NCBI GenBank assembly: GCA_050084515.1
Contig: CM114271.1
Span: 47,926,001 to 47,990,000, forward strand
Source of the DNA: Blasia pusilla
Taxonomy: Eukaryota
DNA length: 64,000 bases
Direction of reading: 5' to 3'
Part shown: piece by piece, positions 1 to 45,300 of the stretch
Position numbering within the stretch: the stretch's first letter is position 1
How the letters are laid out: every line of letters starts with the position of its first letter
Notes under the pieces: model-generated
Database searches by the model: none
What the model saw: only the letters and a program-made list of their open reading frames with translations
What the model was told of the DNA's origin: nothing
Translations under genes and position numbers: made by a program

Positions 1-3000
1 CTCTCGCCTCTCTCGCCTTGAAGACTCAGCCTCTTTTCTTGAAGACTCAACCTCGGAATTCCTAGACCCTTTTGCCTTTGCTTTCAAACTCTCTGTGGAT
101 TTGTCCTTGGCGGTGACTACCTTGGACATCAACTCAGCTATCTCCATGGCTTGTTCTTCCGCATCTCCTTCCAAAAAAATTTCAGTCTTCATGAAGTTTG
201 GAATGTTGTCCTTGCCAACGACGACGGCGTCATACACCATGCTTAGGTTCTTGTTTGTCATCTCCTCCAGCTTGTTGAAGTCCAACCAGATTAGACAATT
301 CAATACCTTCCACTCGGACATGTTTTGTCCCATCTCCATGTCGTACATGGAGAATCCCTCTCCATCAAGAGGAGAAGCCCATAATTTGTAGGTTGCCGGT
401 AATTTTCGCAAGTTACTTGCATTCACAGAATAGATGAGGTACCTGTACACCATTCGCTAGGCAGCTCTTTGTCGAGATGACTCAGCCGCGTGGTTCTGAC
501 GATCCCACTTCTTCTTTGCGAAATATTATTTTCGCACGTCTATTTCCTCGTCCAGATCTGCCTGAGGAAGGATGTGATTCTTGAACATCGTCCTGAAGCC
601 AGGGTTTTTCGTCGGCTTATCCCTAATATCATCAGGCCACAGTTCAAAATCTTTTGCAGCCTCTAGGTTGGCCTCCTTTGGAACTAGCTCAATATTTTTG
701 AGCTCCACTTCTAGACCCACCATCATCAACTTCCCAAGAAGTTATAGCGCATCCTAGAAGGACCATTCCGTAGCCAATATGAGATCACTGGGTCTGATAC
801 GCCCAAAGGGTGGTGTGCCGCCCGCTTCTTCGCCTTGGTGCCTTCAAGATTGATTTTCATGAGTCGAATCCGCCTAAACTCTGATATCCTGTGCACGCAA
901 TCCAAAGAGACCTTCTCTCCAATTCGACCCTGTGGGTCTTTGTCCCTCTTCTGCTAGCGCTCGATTATTGCCTTCAACTCCTTGTAGAACTCCGGGCCAA
1001 GTTCGGGGTTGAGGATTTCAATGTACCGCTCTATCTTTCTTGCAGTGTACTTTGTAGCTACAGACACGGCAGCCTGAATGAATTTGGCCCGTTCCAAGGA
1101 CGAGACATTTTCCCTTCGTTCCAGTTCCAATGTGGCGCTCTTCTTGGCTGCATGGATCTTGGACCATCATAGAATCGTGACCGCTGCATCTTGGGAGATG
1201 AAAGTAATTTCCCAAGTCTTCTTCTTTATTTCAGCGCCCTTCGCCAGCATCTCATCGACCAGGTCCTCACCGAGGAATCCCTTGTACTCTGATGGGGATA
1301 GCGTAAGCACCTTCTTGACTCTGTTGAATTCCAAGATCCAGTGGTGGGTGACGTTCCCCTTGGATACAATCCTCAAAATGCAGAGACAAGGTTAGAATAA
1401 TGATCCCTTGCAACCCTTCAATTTCCGTCTGGTTGCACCGGAGTTTTCATTGCATAGTGAGTGCAACCTGTTAGACTCCGATGGGTTGCACCACTCTCGA
1501 CAGATTGCAAGGAAGTGCAATCCGTTGGACTCCAAGTGGTTGCAAAAATTTCTTCGAGTTGCAATCTCTTGGAGGCCCAATGTAGTTTCTGCAACAAGTC
1601 GGACTCTCGGTCGGACTCTGACGGGTTGCATCACTGTCCGCAGATGGAAACGGTTTGCAACCCGTCAGGGCCCGATGGGTAGCACATTAATGTCCATCGG
1701 CATGAGGTGACACAACCCGTCAGAGTCCAACGGATTGCAGGAAGTCCCCAGAAGCATAGTTCAATCCAAATTTTGACCCAAAAGAAATTTGGTTGCAACC
1801 CGTTGAACTCCAATGGTTTGCAAAATGACTTCCATTCAAAGTGAAGTTTCTAGATGAAACGTGTGTTCAGCAACCCGTCGGAGTCCGACGGGTTGCAAAA
1901 TGGTCTTGTATAGATGTCATCGAAGGCCTAAAATCAACCCATCCGGCTCGGACGAGTTGCAAAAGGCCAAATAATCAACAAGTAGGAGGAACTTTTGGGG
2001 AAAATGGAACCCGTCAGAGTCCGACGGGTTGCTTTTTGGCCAAAAGTGACGAAAAACTAGGTGATTATTTTACCTTTGGCAACCCGTTGGAGTCTGACGC
2101 GTTGCTTTGAGGCCTCTGATGACTTGTAAAGAAGACCATTGTGCAACCTGTCGGAGTCCGACGGGTTGCTAAACATAAGCAACATCCAGAAATCTCCCTC
2201 GAAAGCAGAGTCATTTCGCAACCCGTCAGACTCCGATGGGTTGCAGTAGCTCGGATTTATCCAAAAAATTGGCTACCAATTTCTCATTTTGCAACCCATT
2301 GGAGTCCGACACGTTGGTGTAGCCCGGTTCATCCAAAAAACTGGCTACCAATTTCTCATTTTGCAACTCGTCGGACAAATTTCAGGATTGCCAAGCGAAA
2401 TCTAATGGAAGTCCTGATTTCAACCCATCAAAGTCCGATGGATTGCTGGATTGTACTCGAATTTCCCGTGCAATGTCAGAAAGGATTGTGGCTATCCACT
2501 CCTACGATTCCTGCCAATCTACTATCTGAACATGTTTGCAATCCTTCGGACTTCGACAGGTTGAAGCAAACAAAAATTATTGAGAGAAATATGAACTTAT
2601 ATATTCATGGAATACATTTCCATCTCCACCATTTCCATGTGATGCGGAAATGGATAGAGGACGACTACCCTCACGCAGAAATGCACTTCCAATGAATTCG
2701 GGCCCTCCTCAGCAAACTCTGACCATGCCATGTACTTGTGGTTTCCATCCCATATAAAGAAGTAGAGGTTCCGCATCCAGCTGTATTGTGTTCCTTCAAT
2801 AGCTCTTCTGAATTCCTCGTTTCTGATCCTCCAAAATGTGTCCAAGGCCTCTAGGTCTTCTTCCATCACCAGAGCCTACGTTCCATGTTCATCATAAGGC
2901 TGAACATAGAACGGAGGGAAGCTATCAACGTAGGATGTTGTCGTAACCGACTGCTTCAGCTTTGCGATGTCCTCGTCAGACTAAATTTTGCGGACGTATT

Positions 3001-3940
3001 CTATTGTCTACAGTCAAAAAAGTGGAATTCTTGGGGACTTGTGACCCTCCACCACTGACATTTGCTTAACAACTTGCCACAATGGCGAGGAACGCCAATT
3101 ATAAGGTGCTTTTCAGATTTTTCCAATTAAGAAAGGAATTGAGAATGCGATTTCAAATATGCCATTGTCTACTTACCCGCTCAAAAATTGGTTGAGTGTC
3201 GATGCCAACCAGCTGCTCTAGGATAGCATGTGGCAAGTCCATAGGAAATTCATCGATGTGATAGAGGTCGATTTCTTCCATCGGGCTCAATGACAATGAC
3301 GACTCTTCTCGTGCTTCTTCAGAGATGTCCACCATCTCCACACTTGTGTCCTCATGACCTCCTCGTCCGCCTCTTGAACTTCTTTTGTTTCCTCAACTGA
3401 TTCTAAGTTCATCGTGTCTCCAGACCTCGTCGGGGACATATCCTACATCTCAACATTGTTCGTTGGACGGGTGGGGCTTTCTTCCACCGCGATAGCTTTT
3501 TCTCTCCACACTTTCGCCAATTCTGCTCTCCTGATGGAGGCGTTGAGACGCTTCTTCTCTCGCTTCTCATCCGCAACTCTTTTCTTCAAAGCCTTATATG
3601 CCTCAGCCTTCGCATTCTACCTTGCGAGCTCCTCCAGAGCAAGATTTGCCACAACCTCTTGCCTGTGCATTTCTGCTTCCCTCTCCCGGTCCTCTATTTC
3701 TTGTTGCCTAATTTTTGTTGCCGAGCAAGGGCTAGGAGCTGGCGGCGCAGGAGTCTTGATGGACTCGGGAGTGACGCTCCCAACCTTTGTTACTTGTGTT
3801 TTCTTCCTTTTCATTGTGCATCTTGATTGATTCTTCTTCCTCGTTAATGTTATCTACACATGTGCACTCCAGAAATCCAATCGACTGCCTAAACTCTCAA
3901 AGCGTCGATTGATTGTCTCAACCCAACTCTCAAACCATCA
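1..3940 (-). pseudogene. Decayed spliced accessory gene of the MULE-like element, with a ParB/Sulfiredoxin-like domain; continues past the window start
   Basis: Minus-strand ORF pieces at 3617-3814 (basic, charged), 3153-3341, 2597-2869, 1167-1376 and 526-729. Reading through two TAG stops (2981-2983, 2876-2878) gives YVRKI*SDEDIAKLKQSVTTTSYVDSFPPFYVQ...LYFFIWDGNHKYMAW. Inferred intron 1372-2600 joins in phase (mutated ATAAGT donor, AG acceptor). Start position uncertain. Confidence 0.65.
1409..2565. repeat. Array A: about 17 interspaced copies of the 29-bp palindrome TGCAACCCGTCGGA-N-TCCGACGGGTTGCA
   Basis: Examples: agcaacccgtcggagtccgacgggttgca at 1869, tgcaacctgtcggagtccgacgggttgct at 2142, cgcaacccgtcagactccgatgggttgca at 2217. 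Period about 55-75 bp with mostly unique spacers. Confidence 0.95.
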
Positions 3941-4092
3941 TTTCTTGAAGCACCGTTACCTTCCAATGAAGGGCTTCGAGAAATCGACGTGTTCAGTTGA
4001 GGCGGGGACCTCAACTTCCCTGAGGACTCGAAGGTGGAGGAAGAGCTCCAGCTGAAATTGCAAAATGAAAAAGGGAAATTAGCAAAAATTGT

Positions 4093-4103
4093 GCCTTATA
4101 TAC
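4093..4103 (-). promoter_or_regulatory. Candidate TATA box for the minus-strand accessory gene
   Basis: GTATATAAGG on the minus strand, upstream of a pyrimidine-rich stretch and the first ORF pieces. Confidence 0.3.
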
Positions 4104-4193
4104 TTTCCGAGCCGTTGAGGTGACCATTGGTTCGTGGGAACCGTTGGACCGATGGAAACATCGGCCGTTACGGTGCTTTGCATGTGGGAAACG

Positions 4194-4484
4194 TGCAACT
4201 CGTCGGACTTGATGTACATGCAACCCGTCGGACTCGAAGGACGTGCAACGCGTCAAAGTTTGACGGGTTGCACGCTTCCCTCAGCGTGGGACATCAAGGC
4301 GAGGTCCCCAATAGTTAGATTCCAAAGATTCGCAAGCAAATGGATTCCGTGGCTTTGCAACCCGTCAAAGTCTGACGATTTGCAACCATTCGCATTCCAA
4401 CGGATTGCAACTTCTCGGAATCCGATGGGTTGCAACTTGTTAGAATCTGACGGGTTGCAACTTGTCGAAATCCGACGGGTTGAA
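4194..4484. repeat. Array B: same palindrome, partly as contiguous 25-bp tandem units sharing TGCA, in the divergent intergenic region
   Basis: tgcaacccgtcaaagtctgacgatt/tgcaaccattcgcattccaacggat/tgcaacttctcggaatccgatgggt/tgcaacttgttagaatctgacgggt/tgcaacttgtcgaaatccgacgggt at 4356-4480, plus copies at 4194-4272. Confidence 0.92.
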
Positions 4485-4681
4485 CTAACCTTGTGAATGT
4501 CTAACCTGAGGCAATCTGAAAACTTTCAACGTGATCAATCTCAAGGGAAATTTATTTTTATTGCACTTTCCTTGGTGCAGACACTGTCAAATAATTTCAC
4601 CTACCAACTAACAGCTTGTCAAGAGAATAACAGTCACTATTCACTATAAATTAAGCATTCTCATTCTTATTCTCATTCTCC

Positions 4682-7600
4682 TTGTGGAATTATCTGCAAA
4701 TGGATAATTATGTGAAACTCACACATGGCAATCATCTAGCGGCCCTTCCTCAATCACATATAATTCGACCCCAAGCTATGGAGTCTTACATACAAGTGGA
4801 TGAAAATTTCCTTTCACTCCGATTTCTTCTCCACATTGGAACAATCTTTATTTCCAAGGATGTTAGGGTGGATGGTATGGAGGACCTCGTAGGTGACACA
4901 CTCCAGCCAGTGATTGGAGACTCTAAAGTATGGACCTTCCTACCTTACACAAATGGACAATACATAGTTTATGGTTTTCCTCTGAAGCCTTTTGTTTTCC
5001 AAGTCGACGGTCTGCAATTTCCTAGTGCACTGAGCTCTATGTTTGCCACTCCCAGCTCTGTAGATGTAGCATTGACTCCAACTTCACACATTCGTGACAA
5101 TGTTGTACTTCTTGAAGAGATTCTGGATGTTGTCAACCTGACGGGATGTGCTCGACACCAACCGGACCCTGCCTTTCTCTACTCGTTCCTCTTCCGAGTT
5201 TCGGGCAATAATTTCATGTCATTTCTGCCCTTGAAAATGTTCAAGCACATTCTTGTCAACGAGTTGCTGCCCACGTACGATGGTAATTGCATTTTTGAGT
5301 TGCCTCCACTTGCTGGTCTTGCTCAAAAGAAAAATGGAGGACACTTGAAGGGTATGGACAGAAAGTCTCATTGTCATTGATGGTGCAGGCTTCAGCGGAC
5401 TAGTGCTTCAATTCCATGTGGTCCTTGGATTTTTCTCACCGCCAATGCGTTGGAGCCCTAGTGTAGAAGTCCAAGCTGCCCATTTCTAGAGTGAAATGGT
5501 TGAGTCACTACGTCGCAATTCCCCCCAAAGAATGCAGAAACTCCTTATGAGGTTGGTGCCACCATACCACCAAGAGGCCATCGATGTCCTCATTGTCAAG
5601 CATCCCCTTTCTACATTAGAGCATATCCAGCATAAATATTTTTCATTGCGCACGACTATAGTTCTACATCTGAGTACACCACACTGGCAGTACATGTTGG
5701 TTCCCACACTCATCATGTTATTGGTGCAATTCAGAGACACATCAAGGAGGATGTGGCAAAGAAAGTGGATGAGATGTATAGAAACACTCCGAGATCAAAT
5801 CCCGGAATGATGAAGTTGACAACAGCATCACAAATTTGTGAACAACTACTTGGAATCCCTAGCCATGGCAAGAGCATGGCTTCTGAGGAGAAACAACTCT
5901 GGGAAAATCTGGCATTTCTCGCTGATCTTGAATGCTTCAGGGACTTGTTGCATTAAATAAAAGTACTTGATGGAAAGATGGTCGGAATAGATGCCATTGC
6001 GAGAATCAAGGATAACTCCAGATTTCCTTTTATTTAGAGATGAAAATTTATGTGCTAGGGAGGCGAGGGATCTAGAGCTGATGTCTTCAAAATATCTACA
6101 ACAAGGCCGTCCAGTGGCCTCGATCTTATTGATCGAATGAGGGAAGGAGAAGATCTTTATGGCAGTTGGGTAAGCTTTGATATTTGCTACAGGGTGCTGA
6201 ATGGATGGTTGACCATGGGTGCTCACGTTTACGACCATGTGGAGAAGGGACTCAAAACCATATTTGTTTGTGAGGTAAAAGCAAAAGATGTTGGCACTTT
6301 GAACATGTGTTGGTTACTCTTATTGGAGGTGGTGAAGGAAAAAAAAGGCCACCTCCTGAAATTTATGGGTTCATGGTGGACAATGTACAACTAGGATTGA
6401 TTGCTATCAAGGAAGTGTTATCGGGTGGAGAAGTTCAACGAGAGAGGGAAAGGTTGGATGCTTTCCATTGGCAATAGTCTATGACTCGGTACACCAAATC
6501 TTGCATCGAGGAGAATAAGAGAATAGAGCATGTGGCTCTACTCCAACGCTGCAAGGACAGCAAAACCTTGAAACATGCCATGGAGTGCCAAGAAGAACTT
6601 CATGGGTGGTGGAGGAAGCATGCAATTGAGAGGAAGTACAAGGAGTTTTGTTTTTGGCTCACTTGGCTTAGTACGAATGAGACAATGGGGAAACTTCCTA
6701 CGGGAGGTGAGTTCAGAATTTCCTCCTTTCCAGCTCATGCTGAGAATTATTTGAAAAGTTGCAGCTCAAGTTGCAACTCGTCGAAACGATAGGGATTCCG
6801 AATCTGAGAAGCCAAGCAACCCGTTGGATACGACTGGTTGCTTCAGTGTGGAACCCATCGAAACAATAAGGATTCCAAATCTCAGAAGCCAAGCAACACG
6901 TCAAACTCGACAGGTTGCATCAGTCTCCAACCCATCGGATCTCGACGGGTTGCAAGTAAGAAAGTATGCTAGGTCCGCAAATAGCTGGTTTTCAATGGAT
7001 GGCAAGTTGCAAGTAAGAAAGTATACTGAGTTTGCAAACCGTCGGTTTTTACGGATTTCAAGGTGCCTAAGTGTGCAACCCATCGGATTCTGACAGGTTG
7101 CAGACCTTTGTCTATCGACACTTCTTATAATCCATCAGAATCCGACGGGTTGCACATGGATTTTCTTGGCCAGACTGGCCTCCTAATTGCAATCCGTCCA
7201 ATTTTGATGGGTTGCATTAGGAGCTTCCACATTCTGGCAACCCATCAGAAACCGACGGGTTGCACAGACGTTTTTGGGATGCCTCTGACTTGCAGCCCGT
7301 CCGATTCCGACGGGTTGCAGACCCTTTTTTGTGGATAATTCTTGCAAGCCATCGGAATCTGACGGCTTGAACATGGATTTTCCAGGCCGGACTGGCCTCC
7401 TACTGGCAACCCATCCAATTCCGGCGGGTTGCAATAGAAGGTTCTTGGGTGGTGTGACCCGTCGGAAACCGACGGGTTGCACAGACGTTCCTAGGATGCC
7501 TCTGACTTGCAGCCCGTCGGATTCCGACAAGTTGCAGGCCTTTTTCTCTGGACACTTCTTGCAAGGGGTCAAAATCCGACGGCTTGCACATGGATTTTCC

Positions 7601-9305
7601 AAGCCGGACTGGCCTCCTACTTGCAACCCGTCCGATGTCGATGGCTTGCAGTAGGAGGTTCTTGGGTGGTGTGACTCGTGGAAAACTAACGGGTTGCACA
7701 GACATTCCTGGGATGCCTATGACTTGCAATCCATCGGGTTCTAACAAGTTGCTATTTTCTTTGCTTACAGAGCTTTTTCCGTTCCTTTTTCACATTTTCG
7801 TCTCTGCAGGGATTGAACATTCATAAAAATGCCCTTTGCCTCAACATAAGTGGAGCCAAGAGTTTTGATTCCTCTTGGAGGTTGTCACAAGCATGCCAAA
7901 AAATTTCACTCGTGGAGGCATGCCAACAAGACCAGGCAAGGGCAATGCTACAGTCTGCATCATCCCATATCTTCCTCACAAAAGGCAAAACCAAGGAAAG
8001 GGACCTTCAATTTACGAGCTCTATGTTAGGGCCGGTGTGAGATCTGGTGATGAGAAATTGTATGTGGAAGCCTTCAATTGGTGCATAGCCGAAACTCCCT
8101 CGAGCAAGACGTCCACATTGGTGGGGACATTTGTGGGCGTGTTTTAAGACATCTAATACAAATGGTGGTAGAGCACTCTGAGCGAGACTCCTGGAGACCA
8201 GATAAGTACCTTGACTTCAAGCAAGTCAAGTGTCAACATCAAGGAATGAACCCGATGATTGATTTGGATGAAGAAACAACCCCGCCCAGGTATTCAGAGA
8301 CACCAGATTGCTCCCAAATTTTAGTAGAAGTAACTTCTCCAAAATCAGTGAATGGTGAATCAAAATCTCTCTGTTGGTGGAACTTCGCAACATCTGGTCT
8401 TTGGGGTGGTACAACAGTATGGGATTCCCGTCATTGAGGTGGATCGTAACCTCAAGAGATAGCATATATCTCAAAGCAACCCTGGACGTGGACCACTTGC
8501 AAGGCAGGATCCGATGGCATTAGGAGAGCATGCGGCACTTTTTTGAATAAGAACTATACAGGACTACACGACCACTGCCAGGCTTCTAGGGGCTAAAAAC
8601 CATTGATTGTTTCACTAAGACGAGGGATCAATTGAAGTACTTCTTCTGCCCAAATGAATCATGCGCTTTTGAAAGTCTTATCCAGCTGCAATTGGAGCTC
8701 CAGGGAATACCCCCATGATTTGGCCCATTGTTGTTGGTACCAATTGCACTTAGGAGGAAGTGGACAATCTTACAAGTGTCGGTTTCAGACTCGTAGATGG
8801 AGGGTGTTTGGAGCATTTTTACATTACAGAGACCTTCGCATTTTGGATTTAACCTAAGATTGATGTCAACATGTACCCGGAGAAAGTGGATGATCGCAAT
8901 CCACTATTTCTGTTCGAGTCTAGAAATGGGGTGAAGAGAAATAGAATGCATAGGCCAACGATGGAGAGAGCAAAGCAAATCGCATCAGCTCGAGAGGAAA
9001 ACATGGAAATCATCGCCACAAAAGACGTTCATAGTGGAAATGGAATAGGAAGGATGTATTGGGTCAGGAACAACACTGTGAATTCAAGTGTGAGAGGGGT
9101 GTATGTGGTACACATCTATTGCTTTCCCACATGTTCCTGTGATGACTTTATGCAAAGAGAGAAAAGTGGGAAAAGGTATTTCCCTTGTAAGCACACGTAC
9201 TATGTGTTGCTTGTAGTTTTAAGAGAGTCGGAGGTAGGAGTAGGAATCCACCAACCAATTTCGTCCCTCAAAGAAGTGCAAAGTATCCTAAACAAACCAC
9301 TTTGA
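4682..9305 (+). pseudogene. Mutator-like (MULE) transposase pseudogene: GCM-like Zn domain, DDE core, C-terminal SWIM finger
   Basis: Frameshifted pieces: CVGAL-x-CRSPSCPF...CPHC...HVGSHTH (about 5440-5715); WVSFD (first D, about 6170); GFMVDN (second D, about 6370); LDAFHW, matching the (C/D)xxH motif; SWIM CSCDDF...PCKH (about 9130-9195). In-phase GT-AG intron 6707-7809. Confidence 0.75.
6770..7753. repeat. Array C: palindrome array in the transposase intron, with a higher-order unit of about 217 bp (4 palindromes) repeated about 3 times
   Basis: Units begin at about 7126, 7342 and 7560, with recurring spacers such as catggattttcc...gactggcctccta and cagacgtt...ggatgcctctgact. The array lies wholly inside intron 6707-7809. 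Confidence 0.93.
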
Positions 9306-9766
9306 GGATGCAAAATGAGGTCTTAGATTGTACTTTAAATTAAAGTGCCAAAATGTTCATTATGAGCTTGAACTATAATCAGCTATGGAAACCAGATGCA
9401 TTTTTTTCAGACCTTGGATGGAAAAAGTGATTTGTTCCATATTTGTGATTCCAATGATTTTTCAGTTTTTTTTATTTTGTGCAAGTTGCAACCCGTCAGA
9501 TTCAGACGGATTGCCAAAGTGTGGAAGAGAATAAACAAATTTGTGGTAGTGACTAAGCACAGAGAAAAAAATTTGCAAAAATGTTCACAAAAAAAACTTC
9601 CTCTCTTCAACCCAACGGAAAATCTGTTCAAATCACAGGAAGCTCTCTTCAAAAAAAAGTATCTCTTTGGGTTGAAGGTAGTTTCCTCTCTCCTCTCTCC
9701 TTTCTTCCTCTTATCTCTCTCCTCTCTTCCTCTCCTCTTATCGCGCCTCCACGCCCTCATACCACA

Positions 9767-9865
9767 CCTCCAATTTCTTACAACTCTTAGTTCACCTCCA
9801 CCCTCTCATACCACGCTTCCAACTTCTTACAACTCTTAGTTCACCTCTACCCGCAGTTCCAACTT
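9767..9865 (+). repeat. Short tandem duplication (about 50 bp) following a CT-rich tract near the likely element end
   Basis: ccaa(t/c)ttcttacaactcttagttcacctc occurs twice. Confidence 0.7.
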
Positions 9866-17489: not shown

Positions 17490-18794
17490 CTAGTATCCTC
17501 GGCATCTGACTTTTCTCTCAGCCCAATCTCTGAACAATGCAGCCCTGTCGGCTCTACCTGCTATGCCTGCAAGTTTCTCACTTTCGTCAGGCTGAGGTGT
17601 GTAGGAGTTGTCATTGTTGAGATGTACATCAGTGTGATCTCCTGGCTCGCGTTCCCCAGCCAACTGACAGAAGTTATGTAGAACGCAGCACGCAATAACC
17701 ACTTGAGGCGCATACTGCAGCCCAATGTTCAAATTGGTCAAAATTCCCCATCTCTTCTTGAGAATGCCGAATGCGCTCTCGATGCATGTGTGAGCCTTCA
17801 ATAACTCAGCATCAAAGTCGTTCTGTAACGGTGACGATGACGATCCATGAGACGCTTGAAAGGGAGTAATCAGGAAAGGCATTATGGGGTAATCCGTATC
17901 TCCGACCACGAAAGGACATATCTGCCTGCCGCTAATCTGAGCGACTGGCTGCTCTAGCGCTCTTTCCTCCTTCAACTTATGCCAGAGACTACTTGACCGC
18001 AAGTGAATTCCATCATGTAGTCCTCCAGGTGCATTGCAACAAACGTCCCAGAAAACCTTGTCAGCATCACAGACTCCTTGGAGCAGAACGCTGTAAAACT
18101 TTTTATTATTCCAGTAAAACTTGGGAGTATCTTGCAGTCGAGGTTTCCTCCACAGCTTTACGTGGGTACCGTCGATTACACCACACATATTTGGAATGTT
18201 CGTCATATTTTGAAACTTCGCGATTGTGCTCGCGAGCTTCGTCCCCGTAGGAATACTGATGAACTTCGAGTACAGCTTATCTCTTGATGCCAATATCTCC
18301 GTGATCTGCTTAGTATATTCGGTTACAGTGGAAGGACCGACGTTGTACAAATTAGCAATTGTACTGGGAGGAAGACCGAAGGCAAGCCGGTGCAGAACCA
18401 TGGCAACCACCCTATCTATCTCTATCGGGTCCCTAACCGTATTATTAGACCTCTCAATGAAAGGACTCAGTTCCGCAATCAGCGTTTGAAACGCTCTGTA
18501 AGACATCCGATACTGCGCGTGCCAGTGTGAGTCCCTCACCCGTTCGTCCGAGCTCCACGTTCGATTCTGCACCATATCCCAATAAGTGGACTGTCGAGGG
18601 ATTTTCCAAAGTTTCTTGTTGGAATTACTTACAGAACCGTAGTAGGCCGCCACCAGGACAACAAAAATTGCAGCTACTGGAGTCTCCAGCGCCGACATAG
18701 ATGCCATATCTGTATCCAAATGCCCCCCTTGCATATGTGCCCAGAGCAGTAGCATCTCACACAAATCCATCCTTTTCTCCTTGTGCACGGACAT
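17490..18794 (-). CDS. HARBI1/ALP1-like PIF/Harbinger transposase-derived protein (DDE_Tnp_4), 434 aa, intact
   Basis: Uninterrupted ORF with YRMSYRAFQTL, an HTH region (LHRLAFG...IANLYNVGPST), CGVIDGTH, VVGDTDYP, IESAFGILKKRW and ACCVLHNFC. Confidence 0.92.
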   Translation of the reverse strand: MSVHKEKRMDLCEMLLLWAHMQGGHLDTDMASMSALETPVAAIFVVLVAAYYGSVSNSNKKLWKIPRQSTYWDMVQNRTWSSDERVRDSHWHAQYRMSYRAFQTLIAELSPFIERSNNTVRDPIEIDRVVAMVLHRLAFGLPPSTIANLYNVGPSTVTEYTKQITEILASRDKLYSKFISIPTGTKLASTIAKFQNMTNIPNMCGVIDGTHVKLWRKPRLQDTPKFYWNNKKFYSVLLQGVCDADKVFWDVCCNAPGGLHDGIHLRSSSLWHKLKEERALEQPVAQISGRQICPFVVGDTDYPIMPFLITPFQASHGSSSSPLQNDFDAELLKAHTCIESAFGILKKRWGILTNLNIGLQYAPQVVIACCVLHNFCQLAGEREPGDHTDVHLNNDNSYTPQPDESEKLAGIAGRADRAALFRDWAERKVRCRGY

Positions 18795-34489: not shown

Positions 34490-34912
34490 TATTCCACAAT
34501 GTTAATCGAAGGCGAGAAGCTAGATAAGCAAAATTACAATATTTGGCAATTTCGCATTTAGCAATTTCTCACGGGTCAATAACTATGGGAAGTTATTATA
34601 GATTATGAGGCCAAACCAAAACGGGATTCAACAAACTTTCATGTTTCCACTTGGAACAAACGCAAGGCAAGTTCTTCACTACATTTCAATAACGATAAGT
34701 TCTCCAATGATTGGTCACATTCAAGATTTTGATATTCCGAAGGAGAATGGGATGCACTGGAAAAAATGTCCATTCACTAGAAAGGCGAGAAAGCTTCAAT
34801 TGAAACAACAATTGAACAAAGTGAGCAAAAAATTAATGATTATGTTTTGAGGTATCAAACATATTGTTGATTAGTTGAATAGTATTGGAGTGATTGTAGA
34901 AGAAGATGATGA
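34490..34912 (+). mobile_element. Ty1/copia gag fragment
   Basis: EGEKLDKQNYNIWQFRI, MIGHIQD and ARKLQLKQQLN across frameshifts and stops. Confidence 0.7.
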
Positions 34913-37430
34913 TAGTTTGGTCTACTTGGCCAGTAGTCTTAGTGAATTTTGATCTACCTCCTTGGCTCTGCACTAAGAAGTTTTTCTTCCAATTGGCTAT
35001 GATTATTCCTGGGAAAGAATTTGTGACATCCAATAACTTGGATGTCTGCTTGTCTCCACTAATGGAGGAGTTGCAATTATTGTGGAAAGAAGTCAAAGCA
35101 TATGATAGTACTCAACCAGCAGGAAGGGGTGGATTTGTTCTTAGAGATATGGTAATATGGACAATTAAAGACTATCCTGGTCTTGGGATCATATCAGGCC
35201 AATCCACCAATGGATTGCTTGTATGTTGTGTTTGTGGCCCGCGGGTGTTCTCATACTACTCTAAGCCCTTACAAAAGCCCACATTTCAAGGCCACAGAGG
35301 TTACAAAGATAGGGGTCAACCATACAGGAGGAATTCTATGGTGTAGTTATTCAATCAGAAGGTCGAGACATGCACATCTCCGGGTCGAGTTTAAAGTGTT
35401 GAGATAGTAGAGGGGGCCCAATTGAAGATGGAATTTGGAGATGCCCCTAAAACCAAGCAAAGGCGAGGTGAACCTCGCCTTGTAGATCCTTACAAAAAGT
35501 ATGGCGTCCAAAGAAGGAGCATACTTTTTGACTTGCCTTATTGGAAGGTAAGACTAATATCACTTTTCTTGAAGTGTATAATTATTTTCAATTTCTTCAT
35601 TGCTTTAGCCATAACAATACTCTCAATCTTGTGCCCATTGTGGCCGTGATTGATTTTCAGGACTTGTTGATTCGACATACTTTGGATTTGATGCATTGTG
35701 AAAAAAATCTTGTTCATAATAGAATCAAAACCATATTTGGCTTACGGAAGAAAGATTCTATCCAAGTTAGTGAGGATATACAGATAAGGGGTATTCGTCC
35801 TCACTTATAGCTTCAATCTCATCCTACAAGAGCCACAATTAAGTTGAAACCAAAAGCAGATTATATGCTAACAGCTGATGAGATGAAAGTTTTCTATGCT
35901 AGAGTAAGGGCACTCAAAGTGCCTATTGGTTATGCTGGTGCTTTACAAAAGTACATTCTACGATAGAAGTATTGAAGATTGAGTTACACTCAAGCTCATA
36001 AGATACCTGAACTACTACATTTGGTACTCACACAAAGTAGGGAAGCTTAATCTTGGTTAGTCAGTTAAGCGCGATTATCTTAACTAGGGTTAGTTAATCA
36101 CAATTAGTCTAACCCGAGACTATGGTTAAGGTTAGGGTTAGGGTTGTTTGTACATACTGTATATAATTGAGAAGGGGACCAGCCTCCATTCATTCTCTCA
36201 TTGCAAATTTTGTTCTTCATGGTGGTGTGTGAGTGTGAGAGCCGTTTCCCACCAGTTATGCTTCTTTAGCACTTTTCCAAAGAAGTTGGGGAGCTTAAAG
36301 TCCCATGACTTGCATATCTTTATGCAACAATTATTGCCATATTGCTTACGTGGTTTGATGAAAGCTCCCATCAGAATGACAATAATGAGGATGTCGCAAT
36401 TATTTTGTAGACTGTGTGTAAAAACATGGGATCCAATAGATATGGGATCTTTGAAAGAGGATGTGTCAACCACTTTATGCCTCATTGAAATTCATTTTCC
36501 CCCTTCTTTCTTTGATGTCATGACTCATCTCATGATTCATCTAGTTAAGGATCTTGATATATGTGGCCTTGTTGCAACTCGATGGATGTATCCCATTGAG
36601 AGGTACTTGGGTGTCTTGAAAGGGTATGTAAGGTCTCGAGCTAGACCACACGCTTGTATGGGTGAAGGATATATACTCGATGAAGCCTTGGGATTTATCA
36701 CATAGTACATGCAAGATTATACAATTTTACAAACAAGGGTGTGGGATGCACATGAAGAGGATGGTGTTGTTGGCAAAATACTGGAAGGTGTCGGCATTAA
36801 ACAACAACTGGGTGTTGAACTACTCAAAGTAGCAAACAAATACGTTGTAGAAAACATCGAATGCTTCACAAGCTTTATGGAGTAAGTATCTCTTGATTTA
36901 ACCATGAAGGAAATTTGCCATGTTATTCATTAATACTCGATACTGAGCCTTGGGTTGACTAGATATACATGATTTTGTTCCATGCAGAATATATAGTGTC
37001 AAGAAGACATGTGACAAGACTTTCTCTCAATGGATACCTACAAAGATCAAGAATTCAGTCACGGAGGTGAAGGAAGTAGAAGATTTGGCTATCAAGTTAT
37101 CTGTACCTCCTTCACGCCATTATCTTTCTTATAAGAAAATGAAAGCATATGGGAATCATTATAGAGTTGAAGATAGTGGGTCGTTTGCTACATATGACTT
37201 TGGAATTGCATCTATATTCTTATCCAAGAATCATGGTGAAGTTAGAGAGATACTTATGTGGGGGTCTTAATAGATATCCTAACATAAGACTACGGTATGA
37301 AAGATTGAGTGGTGTTGATGAGAGGGAGATGGGTTCAATCAACTTGGGACCCTCCTCATCCTTCAATGATTCGTGATGAAAATGGCTTCTTGTTGGCTAA
37401 TTTCAAAACACTTTTTCCATCAAATTGTGA
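34913..37430 (+). mobile_element. CACTA/En-Spm transposase pseudogene (Transposase_21 and DUF4218-type regions)
   Basis: STWPVVLVNFDLPPWLC...IIPG...LDVCLSPLMEELQLLW...WTIKDYPG; RSILFDLPYW; LIRHTLDLMHCEKN; LGSLKSHDLH...FPPSFFDVMTHL...RWMYPIERY. Confidence 0.9.
35970..36280. mobile_element. 311-bp insertion (probable solo LTR) in the CACTA transposase
   Basis: Flanked by AGAAG at 35965-35969 and 36281-36285; interrupts R*K|LGSLKSHD; degenerate tattgaa...ttccaa ends. Confidence 0.6.
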
Positions 37431-38317: not shown

Positions 38318-41026
38318 TGTCGTGCGCATACATATGGCTACAAAACATACATCGCTGGTCAAATCTACACCACACAACACCGATCTTCCCCACACACAGG
38401 TAGATCCACACATGTACATAAATCAATTCATACATATACATATAGATCAGGCAACAAAAGTAAAGAGTAGTAAAAACGGCACACCCAGTCTAAAACTCCA
38501 CTCCTCAATCTACATCGGCATATCGAGCCTCGTCCACCCTGCGCTATCAAGGAATCGGGACGCTAGCAACCTATTCCTATCTCACACACATACAAGAGAG
38601 ATGCTCCAATGAACCAACATGAGAAAGATGGCTTAGGAAAGTCGTCTTCCTCTCTTATATAGGGTTGGGAAGAGCCAAAAGGATCTTCCCCTAAAAATAG
38701 CTATCCTCCAGGTAACCTGCGCACACAGGTTACCAGGGGTGGGTGACCTGGTAAACAAGTCACGCGACTGTGAAAGACCTCAGCAAGAAAGTTGTTAGAA
38801 ATGACGTTCCTAACATAACGGACCTATCCTCAACCTTATCCGACACTGTGGGACAAAGTTACACTCAAGACAATCCGTTGGATCCTATGCCCTATTCACG
38901 ATAGATCTCGGCCTATCAGCTACTCAGATGTGATAATTATCATGCACATACATATCTCTACAGAGCATACATCATTGATCACATCTACACCACACAACAC
39001 CAATCTTCCCCACACGGGTAGATCCACACATGTACTTCTGTACATGTGTCAATTCATACATATACATTGAGATCACACAATCGCCCCCCTAGCTGGCATT
39101 TGGATCCCCTAACTCCAGATAGAAAATATCACATCTCTCTAACATGACCTACTACCCTATACACATCCGTCCACGTTCAAAAGATGACATGTCGCACAAT
39201 TGCGCACATGATTCTTCCAAACCATACCATGACGTCCTTCCAACATGAGGACTCTGATCGATAATACCTCGCGCAAACGTAGGATCGTGCATCCTCCAGT
39301 GACATCTAGTGTTGTGGGTGCCGCTTGCTGTAAATACACGTAATCTCCAAGATAAAATCTCCTAATCCCTAGATGATAACCTCCTCCACGAATGGTCGCG
39401 TATCTCTATGTTGAGCAATAGCTACGTTCTCAAAGGCCATATGCATAACTCTACGAAAAATCTTTGCCCTCTATGAACATGCTTGTATTCACATATTTGG
39501 ATCATCAAGATCTAACACCTCCGCGATGGCACATCAAATAGTTGCAGGTAAATCTGGCTCTCTCCCAAAGAGGAAAAAGTACGGTGAAAATGACGCCAAG
39601 GATGCATGCCAACTAAAGCGATAACACATAGCCAACCAGGGCAAATGTAGGTCCCACTCCCTCAACTGTCCCCGCTGCAAGCCATACATCCTCTCTTCAC
39701 CATATGTACTACTCTCTCCGCCAACCCATCTGCCTCAGGATGATCTCTGGACGTGGTGTGGTGATCTATCAGCGCTTGATCACACAAGGCCTGAAACTCT
39801 CCCCTGAACTCGGTACCCTGGTCAGTCAACACCTCCGTCGATGCACCAAAGTGACTAAGCATAGAATCTAGAAACGCATAAGTTGTTCCCTTGCTTGCCT
39901 TATCCGGTAGTGCCACCAACTCTATCCACTTGGAGAAATGCTCCATCATCACCAACACGTACCTATGATGACGCCCTGTCAATGGCAAAGGTCCCGCCTA
40001 GTCTAAACTCCACCAGTAACCTAAACCCATAATCGGCAAAGGATGTAACTGCGGAGTGGGATCATTGAAGGATGCTCGCACTCTGTCACATACCATATAT
40101 CTGGCCACAAATTGTTGTTCCCAAGTATGCATGCCGCGCCACCAATACTGAACGTGGAATAAGCTGTAAGTACACTTTACTCCAAAATGCCCCAACTCCT
40201 CATGGGCATGTTGCACTACACGTGCTTGTTGGGAAGGATGAGGTACCACTTGTATCCTACCATCTCCCCATACCCACAACTCCCTCTTCTCGTCATCCCT
40301 CTGAGTAAGCATTGCTCCTAGACCCAACATGCTCCAATCCGTATGTAACTAGAATGGGCGACCCCAAACCGATCTCTGTAAAATGGGTGAGGATGTCAAC
40401 TTGTCCTTGAGCTCCTGAAATGCTCGCTCCTAATCATCTCTCCATAACCAAACCTGATCAAGTTTTGTCAATAAGATCAAAGACTTTGCGATCGCACTAA
40501 AACCCTTGACATACCGTCAATAGAAGTTCGCCAGTCCAAGAAACGCTCGGACTTGACTCACATTTGTTGGGCGTGGAATCTGCGCAATAGCCTCCACCTT
40601 CATCTGTTGAACGCCTAACCCACTCGGTTATATGGTGTGTCCCAAGTACTCAATCTGATGCTGAAAGAATCTGCACTTGCGTGGATGTAACTTCAGTCCA
40701 TGTTACTGCAATCGTTGAAACACCTCCTCTACGTGTCGCTCATGCTCCTCAACCGTGGAATTGAAGATGAGAATATCATCTATGTAACATCGTACAAAAT
40801 CCAAGCCAGCTTGAATCCTATCCATCACTCTCTGAAACTCCGCAGGCGCGTTCTTCAACCCAAATGGTAAGAACCGCCATTGATACAAGCAATCTCTCCC
40901 GAACCAATCTATCCCCCAGAATGTTGTCTTCTCCCTGTCCTCCAACCTGATAGGAAGCTAATGATAGCCATCACGGAGATCTAAGGTACTGAAGATCTTT
41001 GCATGCCCTACCACATCAAAGATCCT
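38318..41026 (-). mobile_element. Ty3/gypsy element, 3' half (RT, RNaseH, integrase, PPT, 3' LTR 38318-39079), decayed
   Basis: LPFGLKNAPAEFQRVMD...CYIDDILIF; HAHEELGHFG; FSKWIELV...LTDQGTEF...HPEADGLAER; PPT aggggggcgat next to a TG...CA LTR. Confidence 0.9.
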
Positions 41027-41028
41027 GG

Positions 41029-42312
41029 TCATTGAGGTGGATTACAACCTCAAAAGGTGGCATATATCTCGGAGCGATCTTGGACGTGGACCCACTTGTA
41101 GGGCAGGATTTGATGGCATTAGGAGAGCATGCGGCATTTGCCTAGATTTTGGGGATTCAAAACTTTTGATCGTTTCACGAGGACCAAGGATCAATTGAAG
41201 TACTTCTTCTGCCCAAATGAATCCTACGCTTTCCGAAATTCTTATCCGGTTGCCATTGGAGCTCCACGGAATACCCCCACAATTTGGCCCATTGCCGCAG
41301 GTAGGAATCGCACTCAGGACAAAGTGGAAAATCTTACAAGTGCCGGTTTCAGACTCAAAGACGGAGGAAGTTCAGGGCATGTTCGCATTACACAGACCTT
41401 TGCATTTCATATTCAACCCAAGATTGATGTCAACATGTACCCGGAGAAGGTGGATGATCTCAATCCACTATTTTTGTTTGAGTCTAGAAATGGGATGAAG
41501 AGATCTCTTCATCCCATTTCACATTCTGTTTCTAGAAACAAAATGTGTAGGCCAACGGTGGAGAGAGCAAAGCGAATCGCATCAGCTTGGGAAGCAAACA
41601 TGGAAATCATCGCCACAAAAGATGTCCAGAGTGGCAATGGAATAGGAAGGATGTATTGGGTCAAGAACAACATTGTAAATTCAAGTGTCACAGGGATGTA
41701 TGTGGTGCACATCTGTTGCTTTCCCACATGTTCTTGTGATGACTTTGTCCAAAGAGAGACAAGTGGGAAAAGGGATTTCCCTTGTAAGCACATGTACTAT
41801 GTGTTGCTTGTAGTTTTAAGAGAGTCGGAGGTAGGAGTAGGAATCCACCAACCAATTATGTCCCTCAAAGAAATGCAAAGTATTTTAAACAAACCACTTT
41901 GAAGATGCAAAGTGAGGTCTTAGATTGTACTTTCATTTCAGTGAACCTTCACTTTGAGCTTGAACTCTATTCAGCCCAGGGCAAACGATAGATTCTTTCC
42001 AACCTTGGATGGAAAAAGTGATTTATTCCACATTTCTGATTCCACTGATTTTTCAGTTTTTTAAATTTTGTGCAAATTGCAACCCATCGGATTTAGATGG
42101 GTTGCCAAAATATGGAAGAGGAAAACAAATCTGTGGGAGTGCCTAAGCACTGAGAACAAAAGTGCAAAAAAATTCACAAAAAAGTTTCCTCTCTTCAACC
42201 CAATAGAAACTCTCTTCAAATCACAGGAAACTCTCTTCAAAAAAAAGTATCTCTTTGGATTGAAGGTAGTTTCCTCTCTCCTCTCTCCTCTCTTCCTCTC
42301 CTCTTACCGCTC
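41029..42312 (+). mobile_element. Internal fragment of the MULE-like element (SWIM region plus 3' flank), homologous to about 8430-9750
   Basis: Colinear high similarity from gtcattgaggtggat onward. The C-terminal part of ORF 41129-41902 matches ORF 8871-9305. One palindrome copy at about 42078, matching the one at about 9488. Confidence 0.95.
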
Positions 42313-45300
42313 CTCCCTCTCTAGGACTTCATCCAACTGTTTCTTCAACTCAGCAAGTTCTTCTTGATTCAACCTATATGGCACCTTTGAAGGTGGTTGA
42401 GATCCGGGTAGCACCTCTATCTTATGATCAACCGCCCTATGTGGTGGCAACTCAATGGGAAGCTCCTTTGTCAAAACATCTCCAACTTCTTTCACAACTC
42501 TCTCGAGTGTTTCAGGGATTTCCCTTGAAGCTCTATTCTAATCTCTGCATCTTGCGCTTGCGTCATCCTCTACTTGTCTCATCAAGAAAAGGAATCCTTC
42601 CTCTAACTCGGTCAAACTCCTCCTCGTGATGGCTTTCACCAACTTCATCTTACTATGAACCTCACGAACCAATCTGACGTGCATCCGTTTTTCATTTACC
42701 AAGACGCTCAACCTCAAAGGTCTTCATCTCAATTCCACCTCATACGCGTCTATGAACGTGTTCCCCAAGACTCCATTGATTCCGTCCATGTCGCAAACTG
42801 TGAAATTCTCCTTCAACTCGAATAGTCCGCATGCCATAGCTAGCCCTAGAATCAACTCTAATGTCTGGTGAGACTTGCCTCCCGCGAAACCAACCCTAAT
42901 GGGTTATTCCGCCTTAGTGGTTGGCAATCCCAATGCCTTCACGATTCTCCGGCTTAAGAAGGAATGCAAAGCACCTGTATCAACAAGCAACATCATATGG
43001 TGATCAACAATCTTGGATCCTAGGTAAACAAAATTGGGCGTTCTCTTGGTGGCTTGGAGAGATGTATCTAGATCTCCCGTCGATAAGTGCTTAGCACCAA
43101 ACGAAATCATACTTGGTTTACTAACCTTGGGCCTTGCACATTCCTTAGCCATATGCCCGGGTTCACCATAATTGTAGCGAATCACTTTGGTGTTTGCTGA
43201 CTTCGGGTACGGCGGCCCTCTTGGCTTCGCGTTGATTTCCACTTGCTTTGCTGTTGGGGTAAGAGACCCTCCGTGGTTGCGCTCAACCCCATTCCAAACC
43301 CTCTTGGATGCCCCTTTGTTTTTCGGTAACTTAGAAAAACTTTTCGGCTCGAAGGGTTTTTGGCTTTGGACTTCATCGTCCCCTATCCGCTCTCCTAGTC
43401 TCAGAAGTTCCGCGCACGTCTCTGATAGGTGAGGCATACGGAAGAGGGCCTTTTCAGCGCTTTGCTTGAGTCCACTTAAGAAGATCACCTTCTTCATAAA
43501 TTCATATGTGGAAAGTGAGTTCATTTGTGCACTCAACTCTTGCACATAAGCGCTAAAGGACCCGCTTTGCCGCAATCACACAAACTCCATGCCATCGCGA
43601 TACTCCTGATATTCTAGAGTGAATCGGTCACCAATCAACACCTTCAACGCTTCCCAACTCAAAGTTGTTCCACGGCCCATATGTTCTTTACGATGAGCCG
43701 TCCATCAGTGGAGATCATGATCCTTAAGGAACGTGACCACTATAGTCACATTGTCCCGCTCCTCCGCCCTTTGCGCTCCAAAGTAAAGTCCGAGCTCAGT
43801 TCGAAACTTATTCACTATCTAAGAACGAGTTCATACATACATACATACATACATATTCATAGTGAACAGTTTACATACATACATGGAGCCATTACATACA
43901 TACATACATACATACATAATACATATTCATAGTTAAAACCCTAAAGATGGCCATTCTAAGATGGCCATTCATAGGAATAGGGCATGACATTCTTGTGAAT
44001 GGCGTTGGGAAATTTATCTTACAAAGCTTCTTGCCGGAACTAGAAGCTCCATTCGACTTGAGTTCAACGATCATCTTGCTCAATTGCGCCATCTAGATCG
44101 TTATCACCTTCATCAAATCCAACATTTGGACCTAAAAGGCTAGGTCATTTGAGTTTGGAGCCAAAGGCCCCACAGAAAGATGCGCATTTGGGACATCCTC
44201 ATGTTTGGGACTCGACACTTCGGGAGTCGCTATCTCCTCCTCTGGCTCGTGGTCAGTCATTGATTCGTCTCTCGGCTTTTTTAGTTTGGCTGGCGACTTT
44301 CTTGGTTCTTTGCCTTTGGTCGCCATTTGTGAGTCCTCATTATCTCAGATCTCCACCTCATGTCTTGCGTTCCTCCTCGAGCGTCAAGCTCTCCCTGCTT
44401 GAGTTCTTCTCAAAAGTCCATATCTTAGACGACCCCAAGTTCATGCTCACCAAGGAATTGCTCTAATACCACGTGTTATGCGCCTACTCTCCTTGAACGT
44501 TATTCTTTGTTGTTGCGGAAGGATGCGTTGAATCGATTACGCTCCCAACGTTGATCTGCATCCAAACACGCACTCACGATAGTTTGGTATATAACAATCA
44601 ACGGTTCTAACTTGCCGAGCCCTCGACTCAGCCTCTCATCAAGATCAACCTTCCTAGTTTTGTGGCTTACAATATAGGCAAGTCTTGAAAGACTTGGGAC
44701 AGACTTTCTAATCGGTTCAGGAACTTAAAGTGGCGTTTTGTGCTTGGCGGTTCCAACTGTCCAATGGACATCCAATGAGTCTCTAGGTGCGAGTCACAAA
44801 AATGACTCGTGGGTTGGAATCCAAGAGTGGCGTACAAAGTCCACTCCCTTGACTCAGGTTTGGGTTTCGAGTTCCAACGCCAAACTCCCATTCCATCTCG
44901 TGCTTTTGAGACGCCATTTGGCGCTCAAAGTGGAGTTTGTGTTCCAAGACTCTTTGGAGACACTCCCCCTTACTAGTACTTTGGGGGATCACCGAGATCA
45001 CCCTAACTTTAGGAAAAGACAACCGAACCCCTCAGATTGGCCCTCAATCTGATTGCTCTCACCGTTGTTTTGGGCCAATATCTCAGCCTCTACTTACGCG
45101 TTTGCTAAAATCTTTAATACGTTGGAAGACTCTTAGGATAAACTTTCCACCGCGCCCTTATTTGTCCCAAACGCATCTCGTGGCTAAACATTGTCGTATG
45201 GAGAGCCTTTCTTCGAGTAAGTACATGCCTTCTAGATACAAGGTAAACTCTCTAAGAAGTTCTCCTTTTTCAATACAAAATTATTATGTATACTCTCCAT

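Follow-up and report, generated by a model that had tools for sequence, protein, structure and literature searches.

A decayed ParB/Sulfiredoxin-fold exon in Blasia pusilla and its probable origin in a transposon-borne gene family of non-seed land plants

Bacteria, plasmids and phages use proteins of the ParB fold as DNA-binding switches gated by nucleotides; in eukaryotes such proteins are, to our knowledge, little known apart from sulfiredoxin (Srx). A locus of Blasia pusilla raises the question whether a plant genome can carry such a domain and, if so, as part of which kind of gene. The locus lies within a stretch of 64,000 nucleotides (assembly GCA_050084515.1, contig CM114271.1, positions 47,926,001 to 47,990,000 of the forward strand), which is called the window here and whose coordinates are used throughout. 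An initial annotation, made from the letters of the window, had proposed a ParB/Srx-like domain hidden behind two premature stops at 2601 to 3000. Our analysis identified the minus strand from 3076 to 2597 as a decayed exon coding for a domain of about 160 residues, and we consider it quite probable that the domain has the ParB/Srx fold and comes from a gene family borne by transposons. As a dead pseudogene, the window copy is unable to make a ParB-like protein and has no function of its own. The exon and its lesions are as follows:

2597..3076, minus strand: decayed exon with the ParB/Srx-fold domain (A1 and A3 profiles, tblastn, fold of a relative).
3014..3016, minus strand: TGA at the Arg of the IPLCR motif (tblastn, motif position).
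3008..3010, minus strand: TAG at a variable position, two residues past the TGA (tblastn).
2981..2983, minus strand: TAG, the first stop of the initial annotation, aligned with a Gln of the closest relatives (tblastn).
2876..2878, minus strand: TAG, the second stop of the initial annotation, at a variable position (tblastn).
2735..2749, minus strand: DGNHK, the window's form of the family motif DGNHR, with Arg changed to Lys (codon AAG; family alignment).

From 3001 to 2600 the minus strand translates as EYVRKI-stop-SDEDIAKLKQSV...FPPFYVQPYDEHGT-stop-ALVMEEDLEA...YFFIWDGNHKYMAW...VRVVVL...MNI, with WDGNHK at 2752-2735. This reproduces the translation proposed initially, with TAG at residues 7 and 42 (2983-2981 and 2878-2876), and a plain list of open reading frames (ORFs) indeed holds just the second half of the domain (2869-2597). 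Both TAG codons are present as described, but the domain carries four stops and extends beyond the region first outlined, to about 3076. In this upstream part the window reads ...GHKSPRIPLF-stop-L-stop-TIEYVRKI-stop-S in frame, where long relatives have ...PPKIPLCRLEPFTRVRKLQ (tblastn). The order of motifs in the exon family is IPLCR, VR, GY, FYV and WD..W..N..FE, followed by two hydrophobic positions (h-h) and WDGNHR-xxAW.

Judged by sequence comparison, the ParB-like reading frame is far above chance. With the window peptide (X at stops) as query against 1.84 billion representative proteins, phmmer returned 80 proteins at E<=1e-3, 12 of them at E<=1e-10 and the best at 4.6e-17. The A3 profile, which was built from 12 Riccia proteins only and does not contain the window sequence, matched 3052-2585 in a six-frame translation of the window with 80.7 bits (E 2.7e-26). 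The A1 profile, which represents the 41-sequence family alignment, gave 155 bits (E 3.8e-49) on 3076-2597, a score that is not independent, the window peptide being one of its rows. A word-index search with the window peptide for longer proteins gave 0 matches.

The 41 aligned members share the pattern IPLCR..VR..L..F..GY..FYVS..G..WD..W..N..FE..KMFxVWDGNHRLxAW..H..V..L..AMHxLN. Three positions of this alignment do not vary, namely N134 and two Trp residues, and D132, G133, H135 and R136 are each conserved in at least 90% of the sequences. The domain was present in 165 of 170 collected proteins, 123 of which carry the complete DGNHR; of the other motifs 11 are gapped and the rest are single-residue variants, DGNHK being found in three proteins including that of the window. 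DGNHR is thus conserved in the paralogues checked, and the Lys of the window stands where the family has Arg, in agreement with the initial suggestion that AAG is a decayed AGG. The relative P0008, of 570 residues, has 47 matches, all of them "hypothetical proteins" of the liverwort Riccia sorocarpa, located on contigs of eight different sizes of up to 56 Mb. The matches of a profile search, 46 of 60 without a name, also include Ceratodon purpureus, a moss, and Adiantum nelumboides, a fern. Of 552 pattern matches in metagenome contigs, 141 proved to be relatives, and 80 of these were retained as loci. Family members are annotated only as hypothetical protein, and many of them are truncated or have variant motifs, in proteins of up to 1191 residues. 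By these comparisons the family is multi-copy in at least one genome and often truncated, as is expected of a transposon gene. Apparently intact or near-intact members were seen in the environmental contigs L007 (1751-3686 and 5676-5814), L015 (2-1553) and L052 (4617-5076 and 8464-8668).

For the assignment of the fold a relative of the family, P0011, was modelled by AlphaFold2 from a 41-row alignment, with a mean predicted local distance difference test score (pLDDT) of 92.4 and a predicted template modelling score of 0.85. A comparison of this model with 48,161 representative chains by VIA-align gave only 14 chains with Z>=2. The top eight, aligned over 80-99 residues, are KorB (7.4), PadC (7.2), Arabidopsis Srx (6.3), the pNOB8 ParB N-terminal domain (ParB-N; 6.0), SerK (5.9), Atu1540 (5.2), human Srx (5.1) and SbnI (4.9). 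The lower matches include SspE, Spo0J, BrxU, a chain of the DndBCDE-DndI system, O-phosphoserine sulfhydrylase (Z 2.2) and Osa. In a Foldseek search of the PDB all rows down to rank 49 are Srx, ParB, Noc, KorB, PadC, SbnI, SerK and pNOB8 ParB together with two structural-genomics proteins, with probabilities up to 0.99, and the first unrelated row appears at rank 50. Most of the best 50 rows of a Foldseek search of BFVD come from phages and giant viruses and bear the names ParB/Sulfiredoxin, partitioning protein or methylase (E from 0.005 upward), the remainder having no name or another one.

The ParB/Srx fold carries a phosphate-binding G-x-[HR]-R at a core strand-to-helix junction, which reads G-C-H-R in sulfiredoxin. 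In the P0011 model a strand spans residues 128-132, DGNHR residues 132-136 and a helix residues 134-146, so that the motif is located at just such a junction. The modelled structure thus supports a ParB/Srx fold for the domain, because the list of matches is nearly pure, the domain is covered and DGNHR lies at the strand-helix junction. All three independent fold searches with this confident model returned the fold which had been proposed and nothing else of weight. Sequence matches below threshold, to TIGR03187 (DGQHR) and DndB, give hints of the same kind. The family shares the core fold and a motif of the Gly-x-His/Arg-Arg type (G-N-H-R here) with KorB, PadC, sulfiredoxin, SerK, SbnI and pNOB8 ParB-N. 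It differs from them in lacking GERRxR and in an insert peculiar to the family: about 45 helical residues (P0011 85-125), placed after the second core strand and before the third, which bear the conserved Trp and Phe residues of WD..W..N..FE. A canonical ParB is marked by the GERRxR arginine patch (box II), a helix-turn-helix (HTH) domain and a C-terminal dimerisation domain. In the family the consensus at the position of GERRxR is DGNHRxxAW, and the domain is followed by a conserved helical region (window 1371-801), which has no Pfam match.

The lesions of the window copy can be read against this family background. Of the 124 proteins with residues at the position of the TGA, 97 have IPLCR or VPLCR there. 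The initial annotation plausibly derived both of its TAG codons from CAG; the first aligns with a conserved Gln of the closest relatives (VR-x-[LI]-Q), which fits this origin, and the second sits at a variable position. For each of the nonsense codons at Arg and Gln, the exchange of Lys for Arg and the change at the splice donor described below, one C>T or G>A transition would be enough. Lesions of this type may fit the decay of a methylated repeat.

Downstream and upstream of the domain further parts of the gene were delimited:

2595..2600, minus strand: ATAAGT, a degenerate phase-2 splice donor (G/GTAAG or G/GTGAG in relatives, the slash marking the splice site).
1372..2600, minus strand: inferred intron of 1229 nt, ending in cattttgag (acceptor cattttgag/G at 1372/1371).
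801..1371, minus strand: the coding part that follows, with homology to the helical region in the middle of the long relatives and with more stops (A3 52.1 bits, E 1.2e-17; tblastn with P0015 and P0008).
130..555, minus strand: further homologous segment in another frame (A3 positions 511-659, E 3.6e-7).
3077..3832, minus strand: putative Lys/Glu-rich N-terminal region from an ATG at 3814, interrupted by TAG stops and changing frame near 3340-3100, not conserved (ORF translations).

The frame of the exon ends with AAT ATA TAA GT, the terminal TAA being located at 2599-2597. Of 70 related loci with a match extending to the end of the domain, 51 show an N-x-stop there. Among the 25 loci displayed, all 22 rows with N-x-stop have a G before TAA or TGA, which yields the donor G/GTAAG or G/GTGAG; the window has an A in place of this G. 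From this comparison the terminal TAA is to be regarded as part of a degenerate donor and not as an ancestral stop. Splicing to 1371 restores ...M-N-M-I-V-S-K-G-N-V-T-H-H-W-I-L-E-F, which aligns with ...LN-x-SSHATVQYDWIQDAE of the relatives (also written LN-x-SSHATVQYDWI in the tblastn alignments). The gene continues past the segment 555-130 and runs off the start of the window. On the other side of the exon the A3 profile found nothing significant at 3077-3832 (E 6). An intron at 3176-3011 joining the ORF 3341-3153 to the exon was considered and rejected, as the homology runs in frame through 3076-3002 (tblastn, profiles). Many family proteins in the databases, of about 180-250 residues (P0005, P0007, P0009, P0011 and others), end one residue after the last Asn of the domain. 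They end there because the unspliced phase-2 donor G/GTAAG reads as a stop, and these short "proteins" are probably truncated gene models or retained-intron transcripts instead of true short proteins.

In the long Riccia members, of up to 1191 residues (P0012), a disordered N-terminus precedes the ParB-like domain, after which come a conserved helical region of about 250 residues, charged linkers and finally a C-terminal region, which is conserved as well. This last region was followed in P0116, which lacks the DGNHR stretch; it recurs in 11 other proteins and matches PF01555 (N6_N4_Mtase) with E 1.1e-5 and 25.9 bits (gathering score 26.7) at profile positions 165-217, the S-adenosylmethionine (AdoMet)-binding end. 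The NCBIfam model PRK13699 "DNA methyltransferase" matches three of five long proteins scanned (E 0.002-0.009), namely the three which keep the C-terminal end. Searches of phages by tblastn gave weak matches (E 0.1-1), and annotated DNA methylase genes account for 14 of the 15 rows listed. An hhalign comparison of five long relatives with four phage methylases reached 95.3% probability (E 2.1e-8, 78 columns), a test which is partly circular, as the phage genes had been chosen by similarity to the same region. In the independent metagenome locus L034, which shows these parts in the same order, the methylase-like motif lies 2.7 kb downstream of the ParB-like domain on the same strand (A4 profile E 6e-4, Pfam E 0.04). 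Taken together, these matches weakly suggest that some full-length members end in a region resembling beta-class N6/N4 DNA methylases. No nuclease domain was found by Pfam in any relative scanned. Two phage records, L001 (616-1779) and L002 (580-1824), encode DNA methylases of about 400 residues with an N-terminal extension of about 180 residues containing GHGR. These extensions have no Pfam call at E<=0.001, and one of the two methylases adjoins a terminase large subunit; both look like ParB-methylase fusions.

A second peculiarity of the locus is the 27-bp palindrome GCAACCCGTCGGAGTCCGACGGGTTGC, of which the window contains 37 units at <=6 mismatches, compared with 0 in each of 20 shuffles. 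Sixteen units at 1410-2564 almost fill the inferred intron of the ParB-like gene. The others are distributed as follows:

4220..4483, strand undefined: seven palindromic units, located upstream of the gene and spaced in part at a 25-bp period (palindrome scan).
6927..7649, strand undefined: 12 palindromic units in a 217-bp super-repeat (palindrome scan).
9488..9514 and at 42079: one unit each.

Thus 36 of the 37 units lie within 1410-9514, and the last one is inside a duplicate of 8596-9711. No recurrent palindromes were found in nine 6-kb tiles of the window outside the element. Of 45 related metagenome loci that are 2.5 kb or longer, nine contain a palindrome family recurring in three or more units, compared with none of 135 shuffled loci. 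The palindrome-bearing loci represent about five independent lineages, each with its own sequence. The members in L007, L015 and L052 are flanked by their own arrays of 24-26 bp palindromes, for example GGAGGTGCC..GGCACCTCC and TCCAACTTTTGG..CAAAAGTTGGA.

The element to which gene and palindromes would belong is marked by decayed ORFs at 4655-9305, on the strand opposite the ParB-like gene, which end in a SWIM-like finger:

8853..9305, plus strand: ORF with a CxC...CxH (SWIM-like) finger, duplicated at 41123-41902 (Pfam SWIM E 0.29 and Atlas 0.86, to be taken as a lead only).

This ORF may be the end of the element's transposase. The segments 8596-9711 and 41159-42299 are 85-88% identical copies of the 3' part of the element. 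Each includes the SWIM-like ORF, a single palindrome unit and an end rich in CT, while the second copy is devoid of everything upstream. Their common 3' end fades in the CT-rich tract near 9711/42299, and no inverted terminus matching it was found. The initial annotation had placed the domain in a Mutator context, which was not confirmed. Neither MULE, DBD_Tnp_Mut nor any other transposase domain was detected by Pfam at E<=0.01 in 46 ORFs of 1-13153 (hand-picked from 66 of at least 70 residues, most of the omitted ones lying in palindrome arrays). The three plus-strand frames of 4500-9400 gave no transposase domain at E<=1, where decay could hide one, and Atlas returned no result for the 241-residue ORF 4655-5377.

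Genes of a comparable kind were described in algal transposons in 2025. The Ectocarpus element Sola1-1_Ec32, of 21.5 kb, carries on the strand opposite the transposase a gene for a 1104-residue accessory protein with a ParB-like domain and a DNA methylase, which has been proposed to bind and mark its own element (PMC12477816). The family described here resembles it as a large protein in a large DNA transposon (1191 residues in P0012 versus about 1100), by its N-terminal ParB-like domain, by the N6A/N4C-type methylase domain, which is present there and weakly detected here, and by its transcription opposite the (putative) transposase (PMC12477816). Differences are the hosts, which are a liverwort, a moss and a fern instead of algae, the ParB-like part, which is invisible to Pfam here, the expected catalytic motif, which here reads DMPT/S, and the state of the window copy, which is dead and without methylase end. 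The protein PAG3 of Bostrychia, from giant red-algal transposons of the CACTA-type Plavaka group, combines a ParB-like domain with a 2-oxoglutarate (2OG) oxygenase; its gene adjoins tandem inverted-repeat arrays, and self-binding has been proposed (bioRxiv 10.1101/2025.02.11.637652). Common to both are the N-terminal ParB-like domain in a transposon accessory gene and the inverted-repeat arrays beside the gene (16 intronic and seven upstream units here), whereas PAG3 belongs to a Plavaka element and has a 2OG-dependent oxygenase instead of the methylase-like region weakly detected here.

Further, fusions of ParB with N6_N4 methylases occur in ParB-terminase loci of phages and prophages (PMC4738411, PMC12704722). 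The order of ParB-like and methylase-like parts is the same, the AdoMet-binding end aligns with four phage methylases in the hhalign comparison mentioned above, and the viral fold search is headed by ParB/Srx proteins and methylases of phages. Unlike the phage fusions, however, the plant family shows no detectable sequence similarity in the ParB part, has a helical region of about 250 residues and charged linkers between the domains, and is eukaryotic with introns. Iyer and colleagues noted Dam-type methylases associated with ParB in chlorophytes and chytrids, and that land plants have few N6A methylases (PMC4738411). In the open-access literature searched, no report of a comparable land-plant family came up. 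Because ParB-like accessory genes beside inverted-repeat arrays have been published for algal transposons, we file the family as a known kind, an unannotated land-plant family that resembles these genes in its described features. The initial annotation remarked that a ParB fold is not standard in Mutator elements; in eukaryotic DNA transposons as such a ParB-like accessory gene has precedent (PMC12477816; bioRxiv 10.1101/2025.02.11.637652).

On this basis a mechanism can be outlined. The window exon is quite probably the dead remnant of an accessory gene with several exons, in which it coded for the first globular domain and which was carried by a large DNA transposon of a non-seed land plant. 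By analogy to ParB, KorB, PadC, Srx, SerK and SbnI, the intact protein may bind a nucleoside triphosphate (NTP) through the His-Arg of DGNHR, and some full-length members would couple this ParB-like module to a C-terminal beta-class N6-adenine/N4-cytosine DNA-methylase-like domain. The protein might act on its own element, perhaps by loading at the arrays of 27-bp palindromes which flank and interrupt the gene. This combination of NTP binding, methylase coupling and self-targeting is a tentative proposal, which we regard as possible but rather doubtful. In its most far-reaching form it would mean that bryophyte and fern transposons carry a self-addressed epigenetic module, in which an NTP-gated ParB-like clamp at lineage-specific palindromes brings in the N6-adenine or N4-cytosine methylase-like domain to mark the DNA of the element, the module being inherited or acquired from phage-type ParB-methylase genes; this we hold to be quite unlikely.

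Several results weigh against parts of this interpretation. With regard to the fold, the window peptide matched 0 Pfam families at E<=10, and ParBc is absent from the Pfam results of 49 relatives at E<=0.1, so that the profile search which the initial annotation had suggested as a check did not detect ParBc; below threshold, these relatives gave DUF1015 (E 0.0056) and DndB. Sequence searches of the PDB (phmmer and profile) gave nothing significant, the family profile finding only the ribosomal protein eL24 by chance. An hhalign comparison of the family with the ParB-like N-termini of two phage methylases ended at 0.4% probability (E 0.15). The structural model is that of P0011, a relative 28% identical to the window peptide; moreover, VIA-align Z scores of 5-7.4 fall in a range that the tool calls common, and E<=0.001 was never reached with Foldseek. 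With regard to the methylase-like part, the Pfam match occurs in only one of 44 long relatives, below threshold and partial, and only one of the 80 metagenome loci (L034) matched this part, which is not within the window. The full-length AlphaFold model of P0116 is unusable (mean pLDDT 37.9). The catalytic motif of beta-class N6/N4 methylases is (D/N/S)PP(Y/F/W). It was not found at the expected place ahead of the AdoMet-binding end, which was located by eye since hhalign left this region unaligned; the sequences there are LDMPTG or LDMPSG in Riccia, FDVPFG in P0055 and VDYPEN in L034. Methylase activity is doubtful because the expected catalytic site reads DMPT/DMPS, DVPF or DYPE. Finally, the palindromes are limited to the nine of 45 loci and about five lineages given above, they are candidate binding sites adjacent to the ParB-like gene, and the element can be typed and delimited only provisionally.

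The most serious alternative concerns the palindromes, which may be unrelated to the ParB-like protein and represent either subterminal sites of the transposase, as in CACTA-like elements, or a hairpin-rich non-autonomous element inserted into the intron and its neighbourhood. Subterminal repeat arrays are common to several DNA transposon superfamilies. Units lie far from the gene, at 6927-7649, near the element end at 9488-9514 and in the duplicated end at 42079, and most of the related loci have no recurrent palindrome. The arrays of independent gene lineages differ, as co-evolution of a binder with its sites predicts, but co-evolution of a transposase with its sites would look alike. Against this alternative, the intron array lies within intact splice geometry, and the red-algal ParB-like gene shows the same adjacency (bioRxiv 10.1101/2025.02.11.637652). 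We consider this alternative a strong one, of somewhat less than even probability. An unlikely alternative, which still deserves some weight, is that the domain has the same fold but belongs to the DndB/DGQHR/DUF262 wing of the ParB/Srx superfamily and, like members of this wing, senses or cuts modified DNA or is a defence-type NTPase instead of an NTP-gated clamp or methylase partner. The sole hints at sequence level point in this direction, namely TIGR03187 "DGQHR domain" (NCBIfam, sub-threshold; E 0.002, P0011 residues 109-151) and, among sub-threshold Pfam matches of 49 relatives, DndB (E 0.066, P0007 residues 167-207). Moreover, D-G-x-H-R resembles DGQHR more than the GERRxR of ParB, and SspE, BrxU and the DndBCDE-DndI chain are in the VIA list with Z 2.4-3.3. 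These matches are, however, far under the curated cut-offs (17.9 versus 58.85 bits for TIGR03187), KorB, PadC, Srx and pNOB8 ParB-N (Z 6-7.4) rank well above the DUF262- and Dnd-type chains, and a nuclease domain was found in none of the relatives scanned.

Much less probable is that the exon is the remnant of an ordinary, non-mobile host gene such as a sulfiredoxin-like enzyme. Sulfiredoxin is a normal plant enzyme of the same fold, and the Arabidopsis protein is among the structural matches. Nevertheless, no sequence similarity to Srx exists, P0008 has 47 paralogues in one genome on contigs of eight different sizes, and many members are truncated or motif-variant. The domain of about 160 residues with its 45-residue helical insert is embedded in proteins of up to 1191 residues, and the window copy lies amid repeat arrays beside a segment duplicated 32 kb away, all of which makes a host gene very unlikely. 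That no real coding feature exists, because the frame arose by chance or because TAG is read as sense, is hardly conceivable: four stops in 160 codons and the missing Pfam match would agree with a chance frame, but the independent A3 profile and the 80 phmmer matches contradict it. Recoding of stop codons was rejected, as one of the stops is TGA, other ORFs of the window, for example that of a 434-residue PIF-type transposase, are open in the standard code, and the donor is spoiled and the frame changed in addition. Decay is preferred because it explains the TGA, the donor and the frame lesions, which recoding does not. We therefore retain the reading as a decayed ParB/Srx-fold domain of a transposon-borne gene.

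Elsewhere in the window several other features were recorded:

17490..18794, minus strand: uninterrupted 434-residue ORF, PIF/Harbinger-type transposase (DDE_Tnp_4 E 2.3e-25, Plant_tran E 3.6e-8).
34900..35343 and 36142..36702, plus strand: CACTA-type transposase fragments (Transposase_21 E 2.8e-34; DUF4218 E 1.1e-30).
39665..40348 and 42907..43575, minus strand: pieces of long terminal repeat (LTR) retrotransposons, with integrase core and zinc-binding domain and with a gag/aspartic-protease region (domain content).
52415..53650, plus strand: two ORFs with weak matches to PCRF (peptide-chain release factor; E 0.0058 and 5.8e-5).

The PIF/Harbinger-type ORF may be an intact element, and the ORFs with PCRF matches may be exons of a host gene. 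The LTR-retrotransposon pieces flank the second copy of the SWIM-like ORF.

With the window copy being without function, the interest of the locus lies in the unannotated family to which it leads, in the signature of this family and in the recurrent, lineage-specific palindromes. The family extends the idea of self-binding and self-modifying accessory genes, developed for algae, to land plants, with representatives in a liverwort, a moss and a fern. Its signature (IPLCR ... WDGNHR) is sharp, intact members exist, and the candidate binding sites vary from lineage to lineage, all of which makes the proposal testable. If the proposal is true, these elements would be transposons with a chromatin identity of their own, in plants, which by present understanding otherwise depend on 5-methylcytosine and possess few DNA adenine methylases (PMC4738411).

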